A stretch of 64,000 nucleotides of DNA from Syntrophales bacterium (lineage in GTDB: Bacteria; Desulfobacterota; Syntrophia; Syntrophales; UBA2210). A program made the translations under genes and the position numbers. The DNA is taken from positions 1,408,001 through 1,472,000 of the forward strand of contig CAXXNF010000002.1 of the NCBI GenBank assembly GCA_963666365.2, given 5' to 3'. A model generated the notes under the pieces. That model did no database searches. It was given only the letters and a program-made list of their open reading frames with translations, and was not told the DNA's origin. Shown piece after piece: positions 36,373-45,006 of the stretch (position 1 is the first letter of the stretch; each line of letters begins with the position of its first letter).

Positions 36373-39300
36373 ATGCGCATGTCAAGTACGAATCTCATAA
36401 GCGGTCTTTCCAGCGGTTTCGACTGGCGTTCCATGATCGATCAGCTCATTGCCATCGACAGCCGGCGCGTTACGATCGTTGAGCACAAGAAAAGCGAGTA
36501 TGAATCGAAGCTTTCAGAGTGGCAGTCCTTCAATACGAAGCTCCTCGCACTGAAAACAACGGCGGAGAATTTAAGCGATCCCGACGACTTTATGAGTTTC
36601 AGCACAAATATGACCTCCGACAGCGCCACCGTCAAGGCGTCGGACCTTATCTCGGTGACCACTTCGTCGTCGGCGGCCGTGGGCGCCTACTCCATCGTGG
36701 TCGAGGAAAAGGCCTCGGCCCAGCGGCTTTCGTCGAACGCCTTCACCAGCCTCTCCGATGCACTGGGGACGGCCTGCGCCGGCGACATCATCATCAACGG
36801 CGTCACCATCACGATCGACGCCGGCGACAGTCTTACCGATATCAGGGACAGCATCAACAATGCGAACAGTGGAAGCACCCCCAGCGGTGTGACCGCCGGC
36901 ATTGTCAGGTATGGAGAAAGCGACTACCGGCTGTCGCTGACAAGTGATGCCACCGGCGCCGATGGGATCAGCCTTTTGAACGGCAGCGCCGGCGACATAT
37001 TGAACGCCCTCGGTTTCACCGACACCTCCCGGGTCGCCAAAAATCATCTCACCGGGGGCGACAGGAGCGACTGCTTTACCAGTTCCGTGGTCGCCGTCCA
37101 GACACTCCTCGGCCTTAACGACGCACGAACCTCGTCGGAAAACGGCATCGTGATCAACGGCGCCGGCATTGCCGCAATAGATCTCGCCACGGATACCCTT
37201 ACGACGATCGCCCAGAAATTCGTTGCTGCCGGCATCGATGCATCGGTGGTCAGTGAAACGGTCGACAACGAGGTGACCTATCGCCTGTTCATCGAGGGCG
37301 GCGCCAACACCTACACCGATGAGCACAATATTCTGGAAACACTGGGCATCATACGGGGGGGGCTTTCCGATGTAATGGGCGTCGAGGGCGATATCGAGAA
37401 CACGTCGGCCGGCGAGGCAATCACCGAGGATACCCTCATCAGCGCGATCGACGGGTACACCGGCTACGCGGCCGGCGATTACCTCTACCTGAACGGCACA
37501 AGAACCGACGGGACCACGACCGGCCTCCCCGATACCAGCCTTGTGTTTTCCGATACCACCACGGTGCGAGATCTCCTCGACACCATCGATAGCCTCTTCG
37601 GCAACGTGACGGCATCGGTGACCGGCGACGGGAAGATCCGCGTGGTCGACAACGGATCGGACGACAGTACGCTGGCGGTCCGGATATCAGTCAAAAACTC
37701 CGGCGGATCGGAAGAAACCACCCTGTCCTTCGAAAGTGACGGCGACATGGGAACGGCCGCCTCTCTGAGGGCGCGGGAGGTCGTCGCGGGAGGCGACGCG
37801 TCGATTACCATAGACGGCGTGGAGGTGACCAGTTCCAACAATTCCATCACCGACGCCATCAGCGGCGTGACCATCGATCTTCTGAAAGCGGATACGGAAA
37901 CGACCGTTTCTCTTGATGTCATCAGGAATCTGAACGCCGTCAAATCCAGAATCAGCACCTTCGTCAGCAGTTACAACAGCGTCATGTCCTACATACAAGC
38001 CCAGCAGTCCTACGATACGGAAGAAAAAGCCACGGGGGGGATTCTCTTCGGCGACGGCACCCTTTCATCAGTGAAGTCGGACCTGACGACCACCCTTCTT
38101 GAGACCGTCTGGGGCGTATCGTCGGAGTTCTCCATCCTGGGCCTCGCCGGCATCAATGTTGACAAAGACGGTCTGCTTTCCGTCGATTCGGACACCCTGA
38201 CGGAATATCTGGAAACCAACTTCAACGACATAAAACTGCTCTTCGCGGCGAACGGCACTGCCACAGGTTCGGACCTGGAGTACATCTCCTCCGGCGCCGA
38301 AAGCACCGCCGGAGACTATACCGTACATATCGATCAGGCAGCCTCACAGGCGACCCGCACGGGAAGCGTCGATCTTTCAGGGGGACTTTCGGAAAATATA
38401 ACTCTTTCCATCACCGAATCGGGGAACACGGCACAGGTGGCATTGACCGCGGGGATGAGTCTTGACGAGATAATCGAGGCGATTAATACCGAAACGGACA
38501 GGAATGTGACGGAAACCCTGGTCGGCGCCGTGCGCCTCTACGAAGGAACGGGACAGAGCAGCGCCATGACCGCGCAGACCGCCTGGGACGAGGTGTATGT
38601 CGGAGGCAACTCGGCCAACCTCCATGACGGCGATGTTATCGCATTTTCAGGCACGAACCGGTCCGGTCAGTCCATCTCCGGCGCCTATGCCCTTGACGAT
38701 GCATCCTCCGATACTGTCCAGGGGTTGCTTTCGGCCATCGAATCGGCCTTCGGCGGCGCGGTAAGCGCATCTGTCGACGCGTCCGGCCGTATCGTCATCA
38801 CCGATACCTTTGAAGGGGCAAGTCGACTCAGCATCTCCTTCGACTATTCCGACGCCCATCAACTGACCTTCGGTTCCGTGGATGCCACACCGGACGCAGG
38901 GGACGGCAGCCGGGAGGGACGCTGGGCGGTCCCCGTGACCGCATCGGACGACGGCAGTGGTCACCTTGTGCTTACCCACGACTATTACGGCAGCAGCCTC
39001 GGCTTTACCCTTTCGCAGACCGGCGCGACGGATTACCGGGAAATCGCTCTCTCGGATTCAGCATTGACGACGGCAGCATCGTCGGGGCAGATACTGGCCG
39101 ATGGTTCCACGACCTGGGACGGGCTTTTCGGCGCACAGGTGGAAGAAACAGACACCATTACCATCGCCGGGACCACCCATGACGGCACGGACGTAGGACC
39201 ACAGAGCTACAGCATCTACGGTGCGGGCAGTTACAAAGATGTGGACAGCCTGCTTACGGCGATTGAAGCCGCCTTTACCGCCGCCGGAGGATCGGTGGAC

Positions 39301-39894
39301 ACCCGCATCGAAGACGGGAAAATCGTGGTGGAAGACATGGAAACGGGAGAGGGCACCCTCTCGCTGACGCTGACCTGCAACAATGAGGGGGCCACATCTG
39401 ACCTTGATCTCGGTCTTTTTGATGCAGAATCGATGGTCGCTCATGACCTGACGCTGGGGCTTACGGGAGGCGCCGCAAACGGTCTCGATGTGGTGGGCGC
39501 CATCAACGGAGACCCCGCTTCCGGGTCGGGACAGATTCTGACATCGGAATCTGGCGCAACGGAAGGCATCAGTGTGAAGTATGGGGGAACCGACGCCGAC
39601 ATCGATGCGGGAACCGTACGGCTTACCACGGGCGTTGCCGAACTCTTCAGCCGGGTGCTCAGGAATATTACCGACCCCATCGATGGGTATGTGGTCTTCA
39701 AAAAGGAGTCACTCAGCACGAGTATCGAATCTTTTGAGGACCAGATCGATCGCATGACGGAACTTCTGAACCAAAAAATGCAAACGATGATCAATCGTTT
39801 TGTCGCCATGGAACTGGCTATCAGTGAGATCCAGAGTCAAAGTTCCTGGCTTTCAAGTCAGATCTCCACGCTCTTTGACTTTAGCGGCAACTGA
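36373..39894 (+). CDS. fliD: Flagellar cap protein FliD, very large (1173 aa)
   Basis: ISGLSSGFDW..MIDQL N-terminus; IDGV...SSNN.I.DAI.GVT; C-terminal F.AME..IS; precedes fliS. Confidence 0.93.
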   Translation: MRMSSTNLISGLSSGFDWRSMIDQLIAIDSRRVTIVEHKKSEYESKLSEWQSFNTKLLALKTTAENLSDPDDFMSFSTNMTSDSATVKASDLISVTTSSSAAVGAYSIVVEEKASAQRLSSNAFTSLSDALGTACAGDIIINGVTITIDAGDSLTDIRDSINNANSGSTPSGVTAGIVRYGESDYRLSLTSDATGADGISLLNGSAGDILNALGFTDTSRVAKNHLTGGDRSDCFTSSVVAVQTLLGLNDARTSSENGIVINGAGIAAIDLATDTLTTIAQKFVAAGIDASVVSETVDNEVTYRLFIEGGANTYTDEHNILETLGIIRGGLSDVMGVEGDIENTSAGEAITEDTLISAIDGYTGYAAGDYLYLNGTRTDGTTTGLPDTSLVFSDTTTVRDLLDTIDSLFGNVTASVTGDGKIRVVDNGSDDSTLAVRISVKNSGGSEETTLSFESDGDMGTAASLRAREVVAGGDASITIDGVEVTSSNNSITDAISGVTIDLLKADTETTVSLDVIRNLNAVKSRISTFVSSYNSVMSYIQAQQSYDTEEKATGGILFGDGTLSSVKSDLTTTLLETVWGVSSEFSILGLAGINVDKDGLLSVDSDTLTEYLETNFNDIKLLFAANGTATGSDLEYISSGAESTAGDYTVHIDQAASQATRTGSVDLSGGLSENITLSITESGNTAQVALTAGMSLDEIIEAINTETDRNVTETLVGAVRLYEGTGQSSAMTAQTAWDEVYVGGNSANLHDGDVIAFSGTNRSGQSISGAYALDDASSDTVQGLLSAIESAFGGAVSASVDASGRIVITDTFEGASRLSISFDYSDAHQLTFGSVDATPDAGDGSREGRWAVPVTASDDGSGHLVLTHDYYGSSLGFTLSQTGATDYREIALSDSALTTAASSGQILADGSTTWDGLFGAQVEETDTITIAGTTHDGTDVGPQSYSIYGAGSYKDVDSLLTAIEAAFTAAGGSVDTRIEDGKIVVEDMETGEGTLSLTLTCNNEGATSDLDLGLFDAESMVAHDLTLGLTGGAANGLDVVGAINGDPASGSGQILTSESGATEGISVKYGGTDADIDAGTVRLTTGVAELFSRVLRNITDPIDGYVVFKKESLSTSIESFEDQIDRMTELLNQKMQTMINRFVAMELAISEIQSQSSWLSSQISTLFDFSGN

Positions 39895-40976: not shown

Positions 40977-42284
40977 TCAGACGCCGTCATCGGGTTCTTC
41001 TTTATCGAAAAGTTCCGGGTACAGCACCTTGCAGCAGTCCGGACAGAGGCTGTGGCTGAAATCTGCTTCCGAATGATCGCGCACATAGGCCTCAATTTGA
41101 TGCCAATAGCCGCTGTCATCCCGAATTTTTTTGCAGTGTGCGCAAATAGGAATCAATCCGCTGAGGGTTTTTACCTGTGTCAATGCATTCTGAAGATCCA
41201 CGACCAGAGCTTCTCGCTGTTCCTCCAGTTGTTTTTTGACAGTGACATCGCGGATGATGATAAGCGTTCCTGCTTCCTGTTCCCGCGCATCCATCAATCC
41301 GATGCTGCGCACATCGAGATATTGAACGGCATCCCCTCTCTCGAGCTTTTCCTGCCGCTCCTTTTCACCGTCACCGTCGTCACGTACGAGCATTTCCACC
41401 CACTGAGGGAATAGGGCGTCAAGATGCCGCCCTATCGGGGAGGATCTCTCCATTCGCATCAGTTTCAGGGCAGCGGGATTGACGTCCACGATGCATCCGG
41501 CGTCGTCCAGCACCAGCACACCGTCGTTCATTCGTTCGACAAGCATATCTCTTGCAACCGGCACCACCTGCAACAGGAGATACCGGTACAGCGCCCAGAT
41601 TATCAGGATACCCGTCACAGTAAAGATCAGTGGAGAAAGATCCAGGTTGGGAAAGGGCGACAGGTCTGTGAGATAGAGCAGATTGCCTACAAGAGGGGGC
41701 GCCATAGCGAAGACAACGATAAATGCCTGGCGGCGATAGAGTTTCCCCCTGAGCCGGAACATACGCAACAACAGCGCGGCCATAAGGACATACGCGCCAT
41801 AAATGTACACGATATGCACCCAGTACCAGATCCCTTTTTCCAGGGCCAAAACCGTTATCCCGCCACTCCTGTCCAGAGAAATTGCCCGGTAAAAAAGCCC
41901 ATGCGTTTCCGTCGTCCAGTTCAAGAGAAGGGTAATCAGAGGAATAATTAAGAGAACAACAATCATACGCCTCGTCAGCACGGCGGTATGACCGGCATAC
42001 TGCAAGGCGAAGCAGATGCCCCAAAACGGCAGGAAGGCAATGCCCAGGTATTCAAACCTCAACCAGAAGCGCATGGTCCCCAGCTCGGTTCCCGCCAGTT
42101 CCATGGCATAGCCGAATGACCATATGGCCAGGGACAACATGAACAGTGAAAAGGACTTCGCGCCTGCAGATCTGCGTCGCTGCCACACGTACCATGCGGC
42201 CACCGCGGAAATGAGCGCGGAGGTCAGTGCCATTATTATGTATACCGTTTGCTGCACCGATTTGCCTCTTTTCTTCTCCTTCAA
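40977..42284 (-). CDS. HisKA_7TM-type membrane sensor + PAS + C-terminal Cys/His domain (no kinase)
   Basis: 7 TM N-terminus (NWT...HGLFY, G.WYWVH); PAS; IPICAHCKKIRD...W..IE.Y...SHSLCPDC. Confidence 0.8.
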   Translation of the reverse strand: MKEKKRGKSVQQTVYIIMALTSALISAVAAWYVWQRRRSAGAKSFSLFMLSLAIWSFGYAMELAGTELGTMRFWLRFEYLGIAFLPFWGICFALQYAGHTAVLTRRMIVVLLIIPLITLLLNWTTETHGLFYRAISLDRSGGITVLALEKGIWYWVHIVYIYGAYVLMAALLLRMFRLRGKLYRRQAFIVVFAMAPPLVGNLLYLTDLSPFPNLDLSPLIFTVTGILIIWALYRYLLLQVVPVARDMLVERMNDGVLVLDDAGCIVDVNPAALKLMRMERSSPIGRHLDALFPQWVEMLVRDDGDGEKERQEKLERGDAVQYLDVRSIGLMDAREQEAGTLIIIRDVTVKKQLEEQREALVVDLQNALTQVKTLSGLIPICAHCKKIRDDSGYWHQIEAYVRDHSEADFSHSLCPDCCKVLYPELFDKEEPDDGV

Positions 42285-43621
42285 CCGCGCATGCGCGCCA
42301 CCACTATTTCAATCCTCTCGGAATGCAGCGCCCGATCAAGCAGGCGCCTCACCTCGGCGGCATTACGGGGGTCTTCAATCCTGCTGACAAAAGCACCCCA
42401 GCCGGACAGCACCTGTTCGAATATTCCCTCCGGAATCGGCTGACCTCCCGTCGCCATGGCGCACCCGTTTTCCACCACCAGCACCTTTAAAGGAACCCGC
42501 CGCGCCATGGCCTCGATCAGGCCCATATGGCCCGCAGCGAGAAAGGCGTAATCGCCCGTGACGGCCCAGGGTCGATCAATTCCCCCGAGATGCGCGCCGA
42601 TCGCCATGGGAAGGCTCCCCCCGTAATAGCTGCAGGCATCGACGCAGGCATAGGGAGCAAAGGCGAAGAGGCTGGAAAGTCCCGTGTCGCCGCAGACGAA
42701 GGGAATCTGCGGGCGCAGTTCCTGAAAGACATCGAAGAGCGGAACATACTGGGCAGCCGCCGACCGCCATGCGGGGGGCAGCCCCTCAGGAATGGGCGGC
42801 ATGACGGGTTTTGGGACATTTCGCCAGTCGCCTCGGGCACGCCGTGTTTCATACACCTTTTGCTGATACACGGCAAGCGGAGGGCAGAGGACATGACGCA
42901 TGGGATCCCGTTTGTAGTGAGCCCTAGGAGGCGCAAGGGGCCGTCGCATACAGACGGTATGCTTCGACATCAGTCTCGAATCAAGCAACAGGGCCACCGG
43001 GGTCCTGAGTTCCTCCGACCACAAAAAACTTTCGATGAGGGCTTGGTAAACAGTGCCGATTTCCGCTCTTTTAAAGGGAATGCCCGTCCCTTTCAGAAAC
43101 ATGCCGAGATCGAACACACTGTCGGAGTGGGCGCCCAGGGGATCATCTATCACCACGGCAACGAAACCGGCCGTCGTGCCGAGCGTCAGAGAATCGATCA
43201 CGCTGTTTGCCGCCTTTGCAAAGCCGTGGGATTTGATTATCGTCGCTGCACGCGTTCCCGCCAATGCGGCGCCGCAGGCCATGGTATAGGCCAGCTCCTC
43301 ATTGAACGCATAGGGAGGATTTTTTCCGGTGAGCCGGTGACAGGCATCGAAAAGTGCGGCAACTCCCGTGGCGGGAACGCTGGTTACTGTCCTTGCCCCG
43401 GCATCCTGAAGCCCCCAGGCGACGGCCTCGACAATGTCCACAGTCCGTACACCATCCCCTGCCTGTGTAAGCCCCGGGAATGCCTGCGGCAGGAAAAGAC
43501 CGGCAACGGCAAGACCGCTTACCTTGAGAAAGGTGCGGCGGGATTTGTCAAAATAGGTCAGTTCCGCCTCCGCCATGTAGTGTCTGTCATCGTCGCACCG
43601 ACTGTTCTCCATTGTGATCAC
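42281..43621 (-). CDS. Tat-signal TPP-dependent enzyme, IorA-like
   Basis: SRRTFLK plus hydrophobic stretch; NEE.A...A.GA..AG.RA; GDYAF...EN..AMATGGQP; start uncertain (43576 possible). Confidence 0.75.
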   Translation of the reverse strand: MITMENSRCDDDRHYMAEAELTYFDKSRRTFLKVSGLAVAGLFLPQAFPGLTQAGDGVRTVDIVEAVAWGLQDAGARTVTSVPATGVAALFDACHRLTGKNPPYAFNEELAYTMACGAALAGTRAATIIKSHGFAKAANSVIDSLTLGTTAGFVAVVIDDPLGAHSDSVFDLGMFLKGTGIPFKRAEIGTVYQALIESFLWSEELRTPVALLLDSRLMSKHTVCMRRPLAPPRAHYKRDPMRHVLCPPLAVYQQKVYETRRARGDWRNVPKPVMPPIPEGLPPAWRSAAAQYVPLFDVFQELRPQIPFVCGDTGLSSLFAFAPYACVDACSYYGGSLPMAIGAHLGGIDRPWAVTGDYAFLAAGHMGLIEAMARRVPLKVLVVENGCAMATGGQPIPEGIFEQVLSGWGAFVSRIEDPRNAAEVRRLLDRALHSERIEIVVARMRG

Positions 43622-43824
43622 ACATCCTTTTTAAACCTACGGTGAGTTGCTTTCCATTATACTGCCGACCTGCCGGCATAATGGCTGCTTTTTACGAATC
43701 ATCATACATTCATTGCTTGCATAGCGCAGCAATTATTGATAAAAACGCAAAGTTTTTTTCGAATGCATACACCTATCAGTCAGCTATTACAATAGAACAA
43801 TAAAAAAATAGGAGAAGGAAAATT

Positions 43825-45006
43825 ATGAGAGATGTAGTTATTGTCAGTGGCGCCAGAACGGCAATCGGTGATTTTCAGGGATCGCTTTCCGGTCTCAATG
43901 CCGTGCAGTTGGGCATTATTGCGCTGAGCGGTGCGATCGATAAAGCAGGTATCGACAAAAACCTTATTCAGGAAGTGATCTGCGGCCATGTCAACCAGGC
44001 CGGCGCTCCCGGAAACACCGCCCGTCACATTGCCATGGGAGCGGAACTTCCCATCGAATCTTTTGCCTTTACGGTACACCAGCAGTGCGCCTCATCGATG
44101 CGCGCCGCCGAAGTGCTCTCCCAGGAAATCATGCTGGGCAAAGTCGACATCGGCGCCGTGGTCGGCGTGGAAAGCATGAGCAACGCTCCCTATCTGCTTT
44201 TCGGCGCCCGCAAGGGATATCGTCTCAACGACAGCGAGCAGATTCAGGACAGCCTGATGATCGGCGGCCTGGTGGACGTACTTCTGGGCTATCACATGGG
44301 AATCACGGCGGACAACATTGCCGATCACTATGGCATTTCCCGCAAGGAACAGGATGAGTGGGCGCTCATGAGTCATCAGCGCGCCTGTGCCGCGATTGAA
44401 AAGGGATTGTTCAACGATGAAATCATTCCCGTCGAGATCAAGGTCAGAAAGGGGACGGCCATTTTTGACAGGGATGAACATCCCCGACCCGACACCAGTC
44501 TGGAAGTGTTGAGCAAGCTCAGACCGGCCTTCAAAAAGGACGGCACGGTCACGGCGGGCAATGCGTCGGGTCTCAACGACGCCGGTTCCAGCCTGATTTT
44601 GATGGCCGCCGACAAGGCAAAAGAACTGGGCATCACCCCCATCGCCCGAGTGGTCGCGTCGGCGCCCGGTTCGGTCGAACCCCGCATTATGGGCATGGGT
44701 GTCGTTCCGGCAACGAAAAATGCCTTGAAATTCGCCAATATGAAGCTGGAAGACATCGATTACTTCGAGTTCAATGAAGCCTTTGCCGCGCAGGTGATCG
44801 GCTGCAACCGCGAGTTCAACATCGATGTGGAGAAAATCAACGCCGTCGGTTCCGGCATCAGCATGGGACACCCCGTCGGAGCGACCGGCGCCCGTCTGAT
44901 CGTCACCATGATGAACGAACTGAAACGCCAGGGGAAGAAATTCGGATGCGCCTCCCTCTGTGCAAGCGGTGGACCGGCCCACGCGTTTATCATTGAGATG
45001 CTGTAA
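43825..45006 (+). CDS. Thiolase (acetyl-CoA acyltransferase)
   Basis: CASS, NEAFAAQ, GHPVGATG and C.SGG motifs. Confidence 0.95.
   Translation: MRDVVIVSGARTAIGDFQGSLSGLNAVQLGIIALSGAIDKAGIDKNLIQEVICGHVNQAGAPGNTARHIAMGAELPIESFAFTVHQQCASSMRAAEVLSQEIMLGKVDIGAVVGVESMSNAPYLLFGARKGYRLNDSEQIQDSLMIGGLVDVLLGYHMGITADNIADHYGISRKEQDEWALMSHQRACAAIEKGLFNDEIIPVEIKVRKGTAIFDRDEHPRPDTSLEVLSKLRPAFKKDGTVTAGNASGLNDAGSSLILMAADKAKELGITPIARVVASAPGSVEPRIMGMGVVPATKNALKFANMKLEDIDYFEFNEAFAAQVIGCNREFNIDVEKINAVGSGISMGHPVGATGARLIVTMMNELKRQGKKFGCASLCASGGPAHAFIIEML

Follow-up and report, generated by a model that had tools for sequence, protein, structure and literature searches.

The 64,000-nucleotide window analyzed here (positions 1,408,001 to 1,472,000 of contig CAXXNF010000002.1, GenBank assembly GCA_963666365.2, from a Syntrophales bacterium) encodes on its reverse strand a thiamine diphosphate (ThDP) protein derived from IorA, the alpha subunit of indolepyruvate:ferredoxin oxidoreductase. 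Computation shows that this protein is reduced to two domains, a pyrimidine-binding (PYR) and a diphosphate-binding (PP) domain, having lost domain II and the ferredoxin domain of IorA, its proximal [4Fe-4S] site, and its IorB partner. It begins with a leader of the twin-arginine translocation (Tat) type that is conserved among its relatives. We favor, with a probability of roughly 55%, the reading that it is a homodimeric ThDP/Mg2+ enzyme that would be exported by the Tat pathway and act in the periplasm as a non-redox decarboxylase or lyase.

A two-domain descendant of IorA without iron-sulfur clusters

An earlier annotation made from the letters of the window (the original prediction) had proposed an open reading frame (ORF) with a Tat leader and IorA-like motifs. 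The ORF exists, and all the quoted motifs are found where they had been placed, namely EAVAWG..DAG at residues 65–75, the segment starting NEELA at 107–133, DDP at 160–162, GDTGL at 311–315, and GDYAF...EN..AMATGGQP at 356–395 (Table 1). Its first in-frame start codon is GTG 43621, from which residues are counted here, and two further candidates lie inside the ORF, an ATG (residue 16) and a GTG (residue 61, 43441). The likely start is ATG 43612, because a Shine-Dalgarno-like sequence stands in front of it and because the database form of the protein (P0001, 443 aa) begins there rather than at GTG 43621. An Rfam scan of 43300–43900 gave no match, so the region has no riboswitch of a known type, the TPP riboswitch included.

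IorA is the closest family by sequence. The best NCBIfam match is IOR_alpha TIGR03336 (5.3e-26, in two stretches), with the other families at 1e-3 or weaker; in Pfam, TPP_enzyme_C is matched above its cut-off (2.9e-10; 40.6 bits vs. 21.9) and POR_N below its cut-off (8.8e-5). The equivalog cut-off of TIGR03336 is not reached (91.1 bits vs. 650.9). The same genome also has a canonical IorA, a protein of 600 aa that matches POR_N, TPP_enzyme_C, and Fer4; its stop codon overlaps the gene for IorB (POR, 7.5e-42), and the window is about 558 kb away from these two genes. BLASTP aligns the query with this IorA in two blocks at 26–27% identity (query residues 65–263 with IorA residues 9–210, the PYR region, at 27%; and 272–443 with 330–509). 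The two proteins share homologous PYR and PP domains and the motifs DDPxxHS, GDxG, and xxN...TGxQ; however, the query has no counterpart of IorA residues 211–329 (the domain II region) or 510–600 (the ferredoxin domain), and it carries a Tat leader.

To an alignment of 40 family members, which are 43–71% identical to the query, we added the IorA of the same genome. IorA residues C340 and C343 (CPGCP), C365 (GDIGC), and C512, which are presumed, by comparison with the beta subunits of 2-oxoacid:ferredoxin oxidoreductases (OFORs), to be [4Fe-4S] ligands, align with P282, A290, L315, and G446 of the query, and none of the 40 members has a cysteine at any of the four columns. The query chain terminates just short of the C512 position, the eight ferredoxin-domain cysteines of IorA (C533–C588) fall beyond the C-terminus of all 40 members, and the query has no Fer4 match in Pfam. 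No IorB gene was found among the ORFs within about 5 kb of the ThDP gene. Likewise, none was found in a Pfam scan that covered 100 of the 124 listed same-strand neighbors (gaps of at most 200 bp) in 72 homologous loci, the other 24 neighbors being further members of BLAST clusters already represented. The original prediction that Fe-S ligands and a nearby iorB are missing is thus borne out. The protein descends from IorA but fails four features that define it, namely the score, the ligand cysteines, the C-terminal tail, and the partner. Some sources label the family genes "indolepyruvate ferredoxin oxidoreductase alpha subunit", which is wrong because the Fe-S ligands are missing.

Table 1. 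Features of the ThDP gene and its surroundings (positions in the window; residues counted from GTG 43621)
Feature	Position	Strand	Description
IorA-derived ThDP protein ORF	42281..43621	-	446 aa if read from GTG 43621, but probably 443 aa (start ATG 43612); stop codon 42281-42283
Shine-Dalgarno-like AAGGA	43625..43629	-	12 nt upstream of ATG 43612; read from sequence
Tat-type leader	43460..43612	-	residues 4-54; n-region with conserved LTYFD, RR motif, h-region VSGLAVAGLFLP, c-region ending TQA
Twin-arginine motif SRRTFLK	43523-43543	-	residues 27-33; followed by VSGLAVAGLFLPQAFPGLTQA
PYR domain	42956..43447	-	about residues 59-222; Glu108, invariant K130, H132, K136, N139, and D143, DDPxGxHSD block
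Catalytic Glu108	43298-43300	-	invariant in 40/40; aligns with NEK of IorA and with the Glu of solved PYR subunits
Family-specific linker	42722..42955	-	about residues 223-300; stands in for IorA domain II; near-invariant HVLCPPLA and LPPxWR
PP (diphosphate-binding) domain	42284..42721	-	residues 301-446; GDTGL where IorA has GDIGC
ThDP/Mg2+ motif	42467..42556	-	G356-D357-Y-X26-N385, then T391-G-G-Q394
7TM-PAS gene	40977..42284	-	downstream of the ThDP gene; HisKA_7TM (4.1e-68), PAS, and Cys/His-rich C-terminal module; no kinase domain
cupin_2 genes downstream of homologues			loci L042, L052-L055, L059, L060, L064, L065, L077, L079, L081

The cofactor site and its predicted place in a homodimer

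The residues of the cofactor site are conserved. E108, R124, K130, H132, G133, K136, N139, D143, D160, S166, and D167 are invariant in all 40 members, as are G311-D312, G334-G335, G356-D357, E370, and T391-Q394, and N385 is found in 39 of them. Computation on these sequences shows the ThDP site, with its canonical catalytic Glu and GDY-X26-N motif, to be intact and, as judged from this conservation, under selection.

The original prediction had proposed to compare an AlphaFold model with IorA and decarboxylases, and this comparison indicated PYR and PP folds in the canonical arrangement. The AlphaFold (AF2) model has a predicted local distance difference test score (pLDDT) of 88.5 and a predicted template modeling score (pTM) of 0.87; its confident core starts at about residue 56, and pLDDT is below 50 at residues 1–8 and 21–54. 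In VIA-align, both domains together match 8x3x (Z 31.3, root-mean-square deviation (rmsd) 3.0 over 331 residues), the acetohydroxyacid synthase (AHAS) 6lpi (Z 29.5), and the decarboxylase KDC4427 8zk6 (Z 29.3), whereas OFOR chains match single domains, the alpha chains with Z 17–20 (residues 56–263) and the beta chain 5b48_B with Z 15.2 (residues 273–446). Foldseek returned generic ThDP enzymes only, at high rmsd. By sequence, phmmer found no match to the query in the PDB, and the family profile gave only weak PYR-domain matches there (best E 0.0011, none at the default of 0.001).

The best structural matches (Z 28–31, 324–352 residues aligned) are homodimeric ThDP enzymes of the pyruvate-decarboxylase-like type (PDC/IPDC/KDC, AHAS, 2-hydroxyacyl-CoA lyase, and HKA synthase). 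They hold ThDP between the PYR and PP domains of different chains, an arrangement that is predicted for the query as well, and like the query they have no OFOR-type redox cofactor; however, they are only 12–19% identical to it and possess a middle (TH3) domain that the query lacks. A second group, the sulfopyruvate decarboxylase ComDE, the phosphonopyruvate decarboxylase RhiEF (9iz3), and the alpha-imino acid decarboxylase AzcBC (9u8q), shares the minimal PYR+PP layout of about 380 residues without a middle domain. Profile matches to the PYR subunits of these enzymes are weak (E 0.0011–0.0015, with RhiEF 9iz3 at 0.0015) and fall far behind IorA, and the sulfopyruvate/phosphonopyruvate decarboxylase model TIGR03845 scores below its cut-off (0.0052; 16.7 bits vs. 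147.95).

When two copies of the chain were modeled together, a homodimer was predicted with an interface score (ipSAE) of 0.93 vs. 0.00 for the best control, a partner pLDDT of 91, and at least 97% agreement of contacts between runs. For comparison, the mark used for calling a dimer is reached by 20 of the 30 proteins whose solved structure is a pair and by 1 of the 23 whose solved structure is a single chain. Residues 106–107 of one chain contact residues 358–363 of its partner, which we take to be the textbook inter-subunit ThDP site. The model therefore predicts a homodimer whose ThDP site spans the interface, and such a dimer would explain export in folded form. The score probably passes through likeness to solved ThDP dimers.

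A conserved Tat-type leader

The leader of the query scores above the cut-off of TIGR01409 (TAT_signal_seq; 19.1 bits vs. 16.7 for the N-terminal 57 residues from M4), its h-region reaches a maximum 12-residue Kyte-Doolittle mean of 1.92, which is moderately hydrophobic, and its TQA end offers short side chains for cleavage. The genome encodes TatC (1.2e-75) and two TatA/B proteins (1.8e-19 and 5.1e-18). We classed the leaders of 190 family sequences by our own RR regular expression and Kyte-Doolittle rules, which gave 94 Tat-type leaders, 9 Tat-type leaders with a lipobox after the h-region, 14 Sec-like leaders, 58 leaderless proteins, and 15 ambiguous cases; on inspection we then reassigned 17 sequences, most of them truncated entries or ORFs called too long. 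The original prediction had asked whether homologues keep the twin-arginine leader: the pattern [ST]RRxF[LI][KQRT] fits 95 of the 103 Tat-type leaders, and all leader-bearing homologues fall in one clade. Their h-regions are less hydrophobic (mean 1.8, range 1.28–2.27) than those of 12 Sec-like leaders (mean 2.78, range 2.23–3.35), and the median distance from the RR motif to the core is 36 residues.

The codons around the motif bear on whether the leader is translated. Over 23 codons, comparison of 11 homologous loci with the query gave 66 identical, 86 synonymously different, and 101 nonsynonymous codons, and the two arginines are spelled, for example, CGC CGC, CGC CGG, CGG AGG, CGC AGA, or CGA CGG. 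Since the amino acids are conserved across 86 synonymous changes, the leader is translated.

Two further observations concern the 5′ part of the gene. Residues 21–26 (43544–43561, reverse strand), ahead of the RR motif, read L-T-Y-F-D/N in the main clade and L-W-Y-Y-D in a second clade. This conservation of the n-region exceeds what a generic Tat signal needs, and the segment may be a candidate site for a dedicated export chaperone. In addition, leader codons 16–55 (43457–43576, reverse strand) show 0 synonymous and 2 nonsynonymous differences from a close relative (L108:5046–5165, protein 92% identical), and over the 391 codons of the core the same relative differs synonymously at 44 and nonsynonymously at 33. 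The lack of synonymous differences in the leader vs. 44 in the core suggests extra constraint at the nucleotide level at the 5′ end of the gene.

Distribution of the family and a proposed history of export

A word-indexed search found 159 relatives, 120 of which were listed, and the named relatives among the matches listed are mostly Syntrophales and "Deltaproteobacteria". An HMMER pass over 1.84 billion representatives gave 208 clusters at E<=1e-30; full-length matches in a single stretch score above about 200 bits, and IorA-like proteins of 450–650 aa, matching in two stretches, appear from about 170 bits down. A survey of species-representative genomes yielded 125 relatives, of which 80 loci were kept; their sources are Syntrophales, Geobacteraceae, Bathyarchaeia, Methanothrix, Anaerolineae, Bacteroidales, Melioribacter/Ignavibacteria, and others; most of their homologues are about 385 aa long and start 3–8 residues ahead of the core. 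The gene is patchy, being present in 4 of 61 related genomes including that of the window, and in a genome of the same genus (G001, 97% complete) no orthologue of either the ThDP gene or the 7TM gene downstream of it was found. Longer or fused forms (782–2230 aa) were not returned by the search, which is weak evidence. Separately, one protein of the leaderless group (P0132, 579 aa) has an N-terminal extension of about 190 aa that may resemble HPPK/FolK and could reflect either a genuine fusion or an error in gene calling.

In a FastTree phylogeny of 183 distinct cores (384 columns, midpoint root), all Tat-type, lipobox, and Sec-like sequences group together in a clade of 120 rows (SH-like support 99). 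This clade also includes 4 rows without a leader (three N-terminally short entries and L056) and 5 ambiguous ones, and the 63 rows outside it are leaderless except for one ambiguous row (L083); exported and leaderless states are separated by 5 changes on the tree. The leader-bearing clade is nested among leaderless proteins of about 385 aa from archaea, Bacteroidota, and Ignavibacteria. As cytoplasmic IorA is the natural outgroup, the simplest reading of these sequences would be a single gain of export followed by switching among Tat, Sec, and lipoprotein signals.

The same data bear on whether the query leaves the cytoplasm at all. Its leader could be unused for export, as a vestigial, chaperone-binding leader of the NarG type, or translation could start at GTG 43441, and the product would then be a cytoplasmic protein or one at the cytoplasmic face. 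That GTG lies just ahead of the core, where the leaderless homologues begin; a large part of the wider family is leaderless (66 of 183 rows); and the conservation of LTYFD beyond generic Tat need could mark a chaperone-binding site. However, the leader is complete, with the full consensus motif, an h-region, and an end resembling A-x-A; it is translated as judged from the synonymous changes above, and relatives in the same clade carry lipoboxes or Sec signals at the same position, which are sensible only for exported proteins. We consider a cytoplasmic location distinctly unlikely.

Six cluster representatives (P0194, P0199, P0202, P0204, P0205, and P0214; 427–451 aa) match the family profile with E 1e-45 to 1e-67 and have no Pfam match. 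They carry Sec lipoprotein leaders, in which a hydrophobic stretch is followed by a lipobox Cys, and they lack E108, GD[YF], N385, TGGQ, and the K130/H132/K136/N139/D143 set. By their sequences, these proteins look like exported pseudo-enzymes derived from the family fold, and the leader-bearing clade may be the source of such cofactor-less lipoproteins.

Their existence touches on another role for the query, that of an exported, non-catalytic protein that binds ThDP or thiamine for scavenging or storage. Export itself and the Sec-type relatives suggest that the cofactor could be met outside the cell, and this sister lipoprotein group has lost catalysis altogether. Nevertheless, these six lipoproteins have lost the ThDP motif too, and in the family proper Glu108 and R124, K130, H132, K136, N139, D143, D160, S166, and D167 are invariant, which disfavors such a role because a mere binder would not need invariant active-site residues that do not hold the cofactor. 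We regard a binding protein as extremely unlikely.

Gene neighborhood and the 7TM-PAS gene

Downstream of the ThDP gene, and probably co-transcribed with it, is a gene for a seven-transmembrane (7TM) PAS protein. The original prediction had the two genes overlap by 4 bp and suggested that they may form a sensing module. The overlap stands only if the 7TM gene starts at TTG 42284; GTG 42257, which has GAGG 8 nt ahead of it, would serve equally well and leave the genes 24 bp apart. In a sensing module, a metabolite would be bound or converted by the ThDP protein in the periplasm, which would then signal to the 7TM-PAS receptor. In favor of this idea, the genes lie on the same strand with a spacing of either -4 or +24 bp, and two relatives keep the pair: the order thiolase, ThDP gene, 7TM gene, FlgN-like gene, FliS, and FliD recurs in L108 and, at about 93% DNA identity (337 differences in 5201 bases), on a marine-sediment contig of 12.1 kb. 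These two are close kin of the window and too near to count as independent support.

The wider survey speaks against the module. Among the 80 loci (810 ORFs, called by a crude longest-ORF rule), BLASTP matches to the 7TM protein occur in only two. In L041, a distant locus, a HisKA_7TM-PAS-HisKA-HATPase kinase lies beside a homologue, which could be counted for a sensing role; however, this homologue is leaderless and the kinase gene is divergent, 100 bp upstream. In L034, only the C-terminal module is matched, about 5 kb away. No 7TM neighbor is present in the Tat-clade loci L005–L017 and L020, in a Tat-clade sample of about 14 loci, and the same-genus genome G001 has neither gene. The synteny is broken there, with thiolase and FliD about 90 kb apart, which is uninformative on whether the ThDP and 7TM genes move together. 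With a full-length 7TM relative adjoining a homologue in 1 of 80 loci, and with the pairing persisting only in near-identical relatives, the module proposed in the original prediction is not supported, and we judge it very unlikely. The 7TM-PAS gene is a lineage-specific neighbor outside the conserved unit; the best non-self matches to its product in 40 related genomes are 31–35% identical. A BLAST cluster (c8) that had seemed a recurring sensor neighbor was rejected, as its members are generic PAS histidine kinases with the 7TM domain only in L041.

The 7TM protein has features of its own. Its C-terminal module (about 40980–41240, about 85 aa; CxxC ... H ... CPxCC) has no match in Pfam or NCBIfam, and it recurs at 41–53% identity in three other places in the genome and in related genomes, on other N-termini. 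At its N-terminus (42248, reverse strand), the marine-sediment relatives have an in-frame insertion of 3 nt (runs X5 and X7).

Apart from the 7TM gene, the neighbors are bound to lineages or scattered, and the Pfam scan of 100 neighbors in the 72 loci found no ferredoxin partner or other family recurrent across lineages. A cupin_2 gene abuts or overlaps the stop codon of a leaderless homologue in 12 Ignavibacteria/Melioribacter loci (Table 1) and lies directly upstream of a homologue with a Sec-like leader in one Geobacteraceae locus (L049:5398–5874). Two Methanothrix loci have an AI-2E transporter and two Syntrophales loci a permease with a Cache protein, and GNAT genes occur in 5 loci. A single-protein query was too narrow for such comparisons, giving 0 loci in genome contigs and 2 in metagenome contigs. 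Elsewhere in the window, upstream of fliS, ORF 36373–39894 (forward strand) encodes a filament-cap-like protein of 1173 aa, which we tentatively take to be FliD by its position; its same-genus counterpart is 68% identical and of similar length. A length of 1173 aa is far above that usual for FliD.

Proposed function

In the mechanism we propose, the protein would fold, dimerize, and bind ThDP in the cytoplasm, the twin-arginine pathway would export it folded, and its leader would be cut after TQA (residue 54). In the periplasm it would carry out non-oxidative ThDP chemistry, either decarboxylating a 2-oxoacid to give an aldehyde or acting as a related C-C lyase or carboligase. We infer both the export of a folded, ThDP-loaded dimer and the non-oxidative reaction, the latter because the protein has no cluster, flavin, or heme and so no internal electron acceptor. 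Descent, and descent only, suggests by analogy an arylpyruvate-like substrate. The core of the original prediction, an exported, folded, cofactor-loaded ThDP protein free of Fe-S clusters, is supported at the sequence level by the leader, the Tat genes, the lipobox and Sec-type leaders of relatives, the cofactor residues, and the loss of ligands; its 7TM module is the part that found no support.

The enzyme might instead be oxidative: the ThDP-bound intermediate, instead of taking up a proton, would hand its electrons directly to an acceptor outside the protein, for example a c-type cytochrome or a disulfide/polysulfide, and the electron-transfer chain of the enzyme would then be outsourced. 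Its descent from an oxidoreductase fits this, and Tat substrates are mostly redox enzymes. At one Tat-clade locus (L020), moreover, a cytochrome c gene (Cytochrome_CBB3, 8.3e-12) lies directly upstream on the same strand. However, such a neighbor is found in only 1 of the 72 listed loci, the protein itself has no flavin, heme, or Fe-S motif, and the leaderless members from archaea and Bacteroidota keep the active-site residues without such a partner. We regard an oxidative enzyme as unlikely.

Several points weigh against a Tat-exported, non-redox decarboxylase or lyase. The loci scanned contain no conserved neighbor that hints at a substrate, and there is no obvious physiological reason for decarboxylation in the periplasm. 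The leader scores just under the cut-off of Pfam TAT_signal PF10518 (20.6 bits vs. 22.7), the leader classes come from rules of our own making, and translation from the GTG at residue 61 could yield a leaderless protein of 386 aa like the forms of archaea and Bacteroidota. The direction of change, toward gain of a leader, is an inference because the tree is rooted only at its midpoint. In addition, 13 sister sequences of the tree have Sec-like leaders, and because Sec exports unfolded chains, loading of the cofactor before export is not the whole story for the family.

A proposed thiamine diphosphate protein on the Tat pathway

The leader resembles those of cofactor-containing Tat substrates in its S-R-R-x-F-L-K motif and in the moderate hydrophobicity of its h-region, and export of an oligomer already folded and loaded with cofactor would follow the same logic. 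Such substrates include molybdo-, Fe-S, NiFe, copper, and flavin enzymes and the NADP-bound GFOR of Zymomonas. ThDP is not known to travel with Tat substrates, and no ThDP-bearing Tat substrate is known. Bacterial ThDP enzymes are regarded as cytoplasmic; the known PDC-like enzymes are cytoplasmic, or peroxisomal in eukaryotes, and two-domain decarboxylases such as ComDE, RhiEF, and AzcBC are not known to carry an export signal. A search of openly accessible full-text literature turned up neither a Tat-exported or periplasmic ThDP enzyme nor a cluster-less IorA-like protein, and the passages of PMC13768988 reached by a term search contain nothing on exported or cluster-less IorA-like proteins. 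The ThDP fold and Tat export are each known; their combination and the minimal IorA-derived architecture appear undescribed.

We see an even chance that these proteins are the first family of ThDP-containing Tat substrates, that is, minimal, Fe-S-free descendants of an oxidoreductase subunit that would perform C-C bond chemistry in the periplasm of anaerobes, in a clade that would have switched among Tat, Tat-lipoprotein, and Sec export. If true, this switching would imply that ThDP can also be loaded outside the cytoplasm. If a conserved clade spanning several phyla does export its ThDP proteins, the Tat repertoire would gain a class of cofactor, and a so far unrecognized chemistry of 2-oxoacids or aldehydes would be indicated in the periplasm of syntrophic anaerobes and anaerobes of sediments. 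The family would then also offer a natural series for the recruitment of a cytoplasmic enzyme to the cell envelope, running from leaderless proteins through Tat, Tat-lipoprotein, and Sec forms to lipoprotein pseudo-enzymes.

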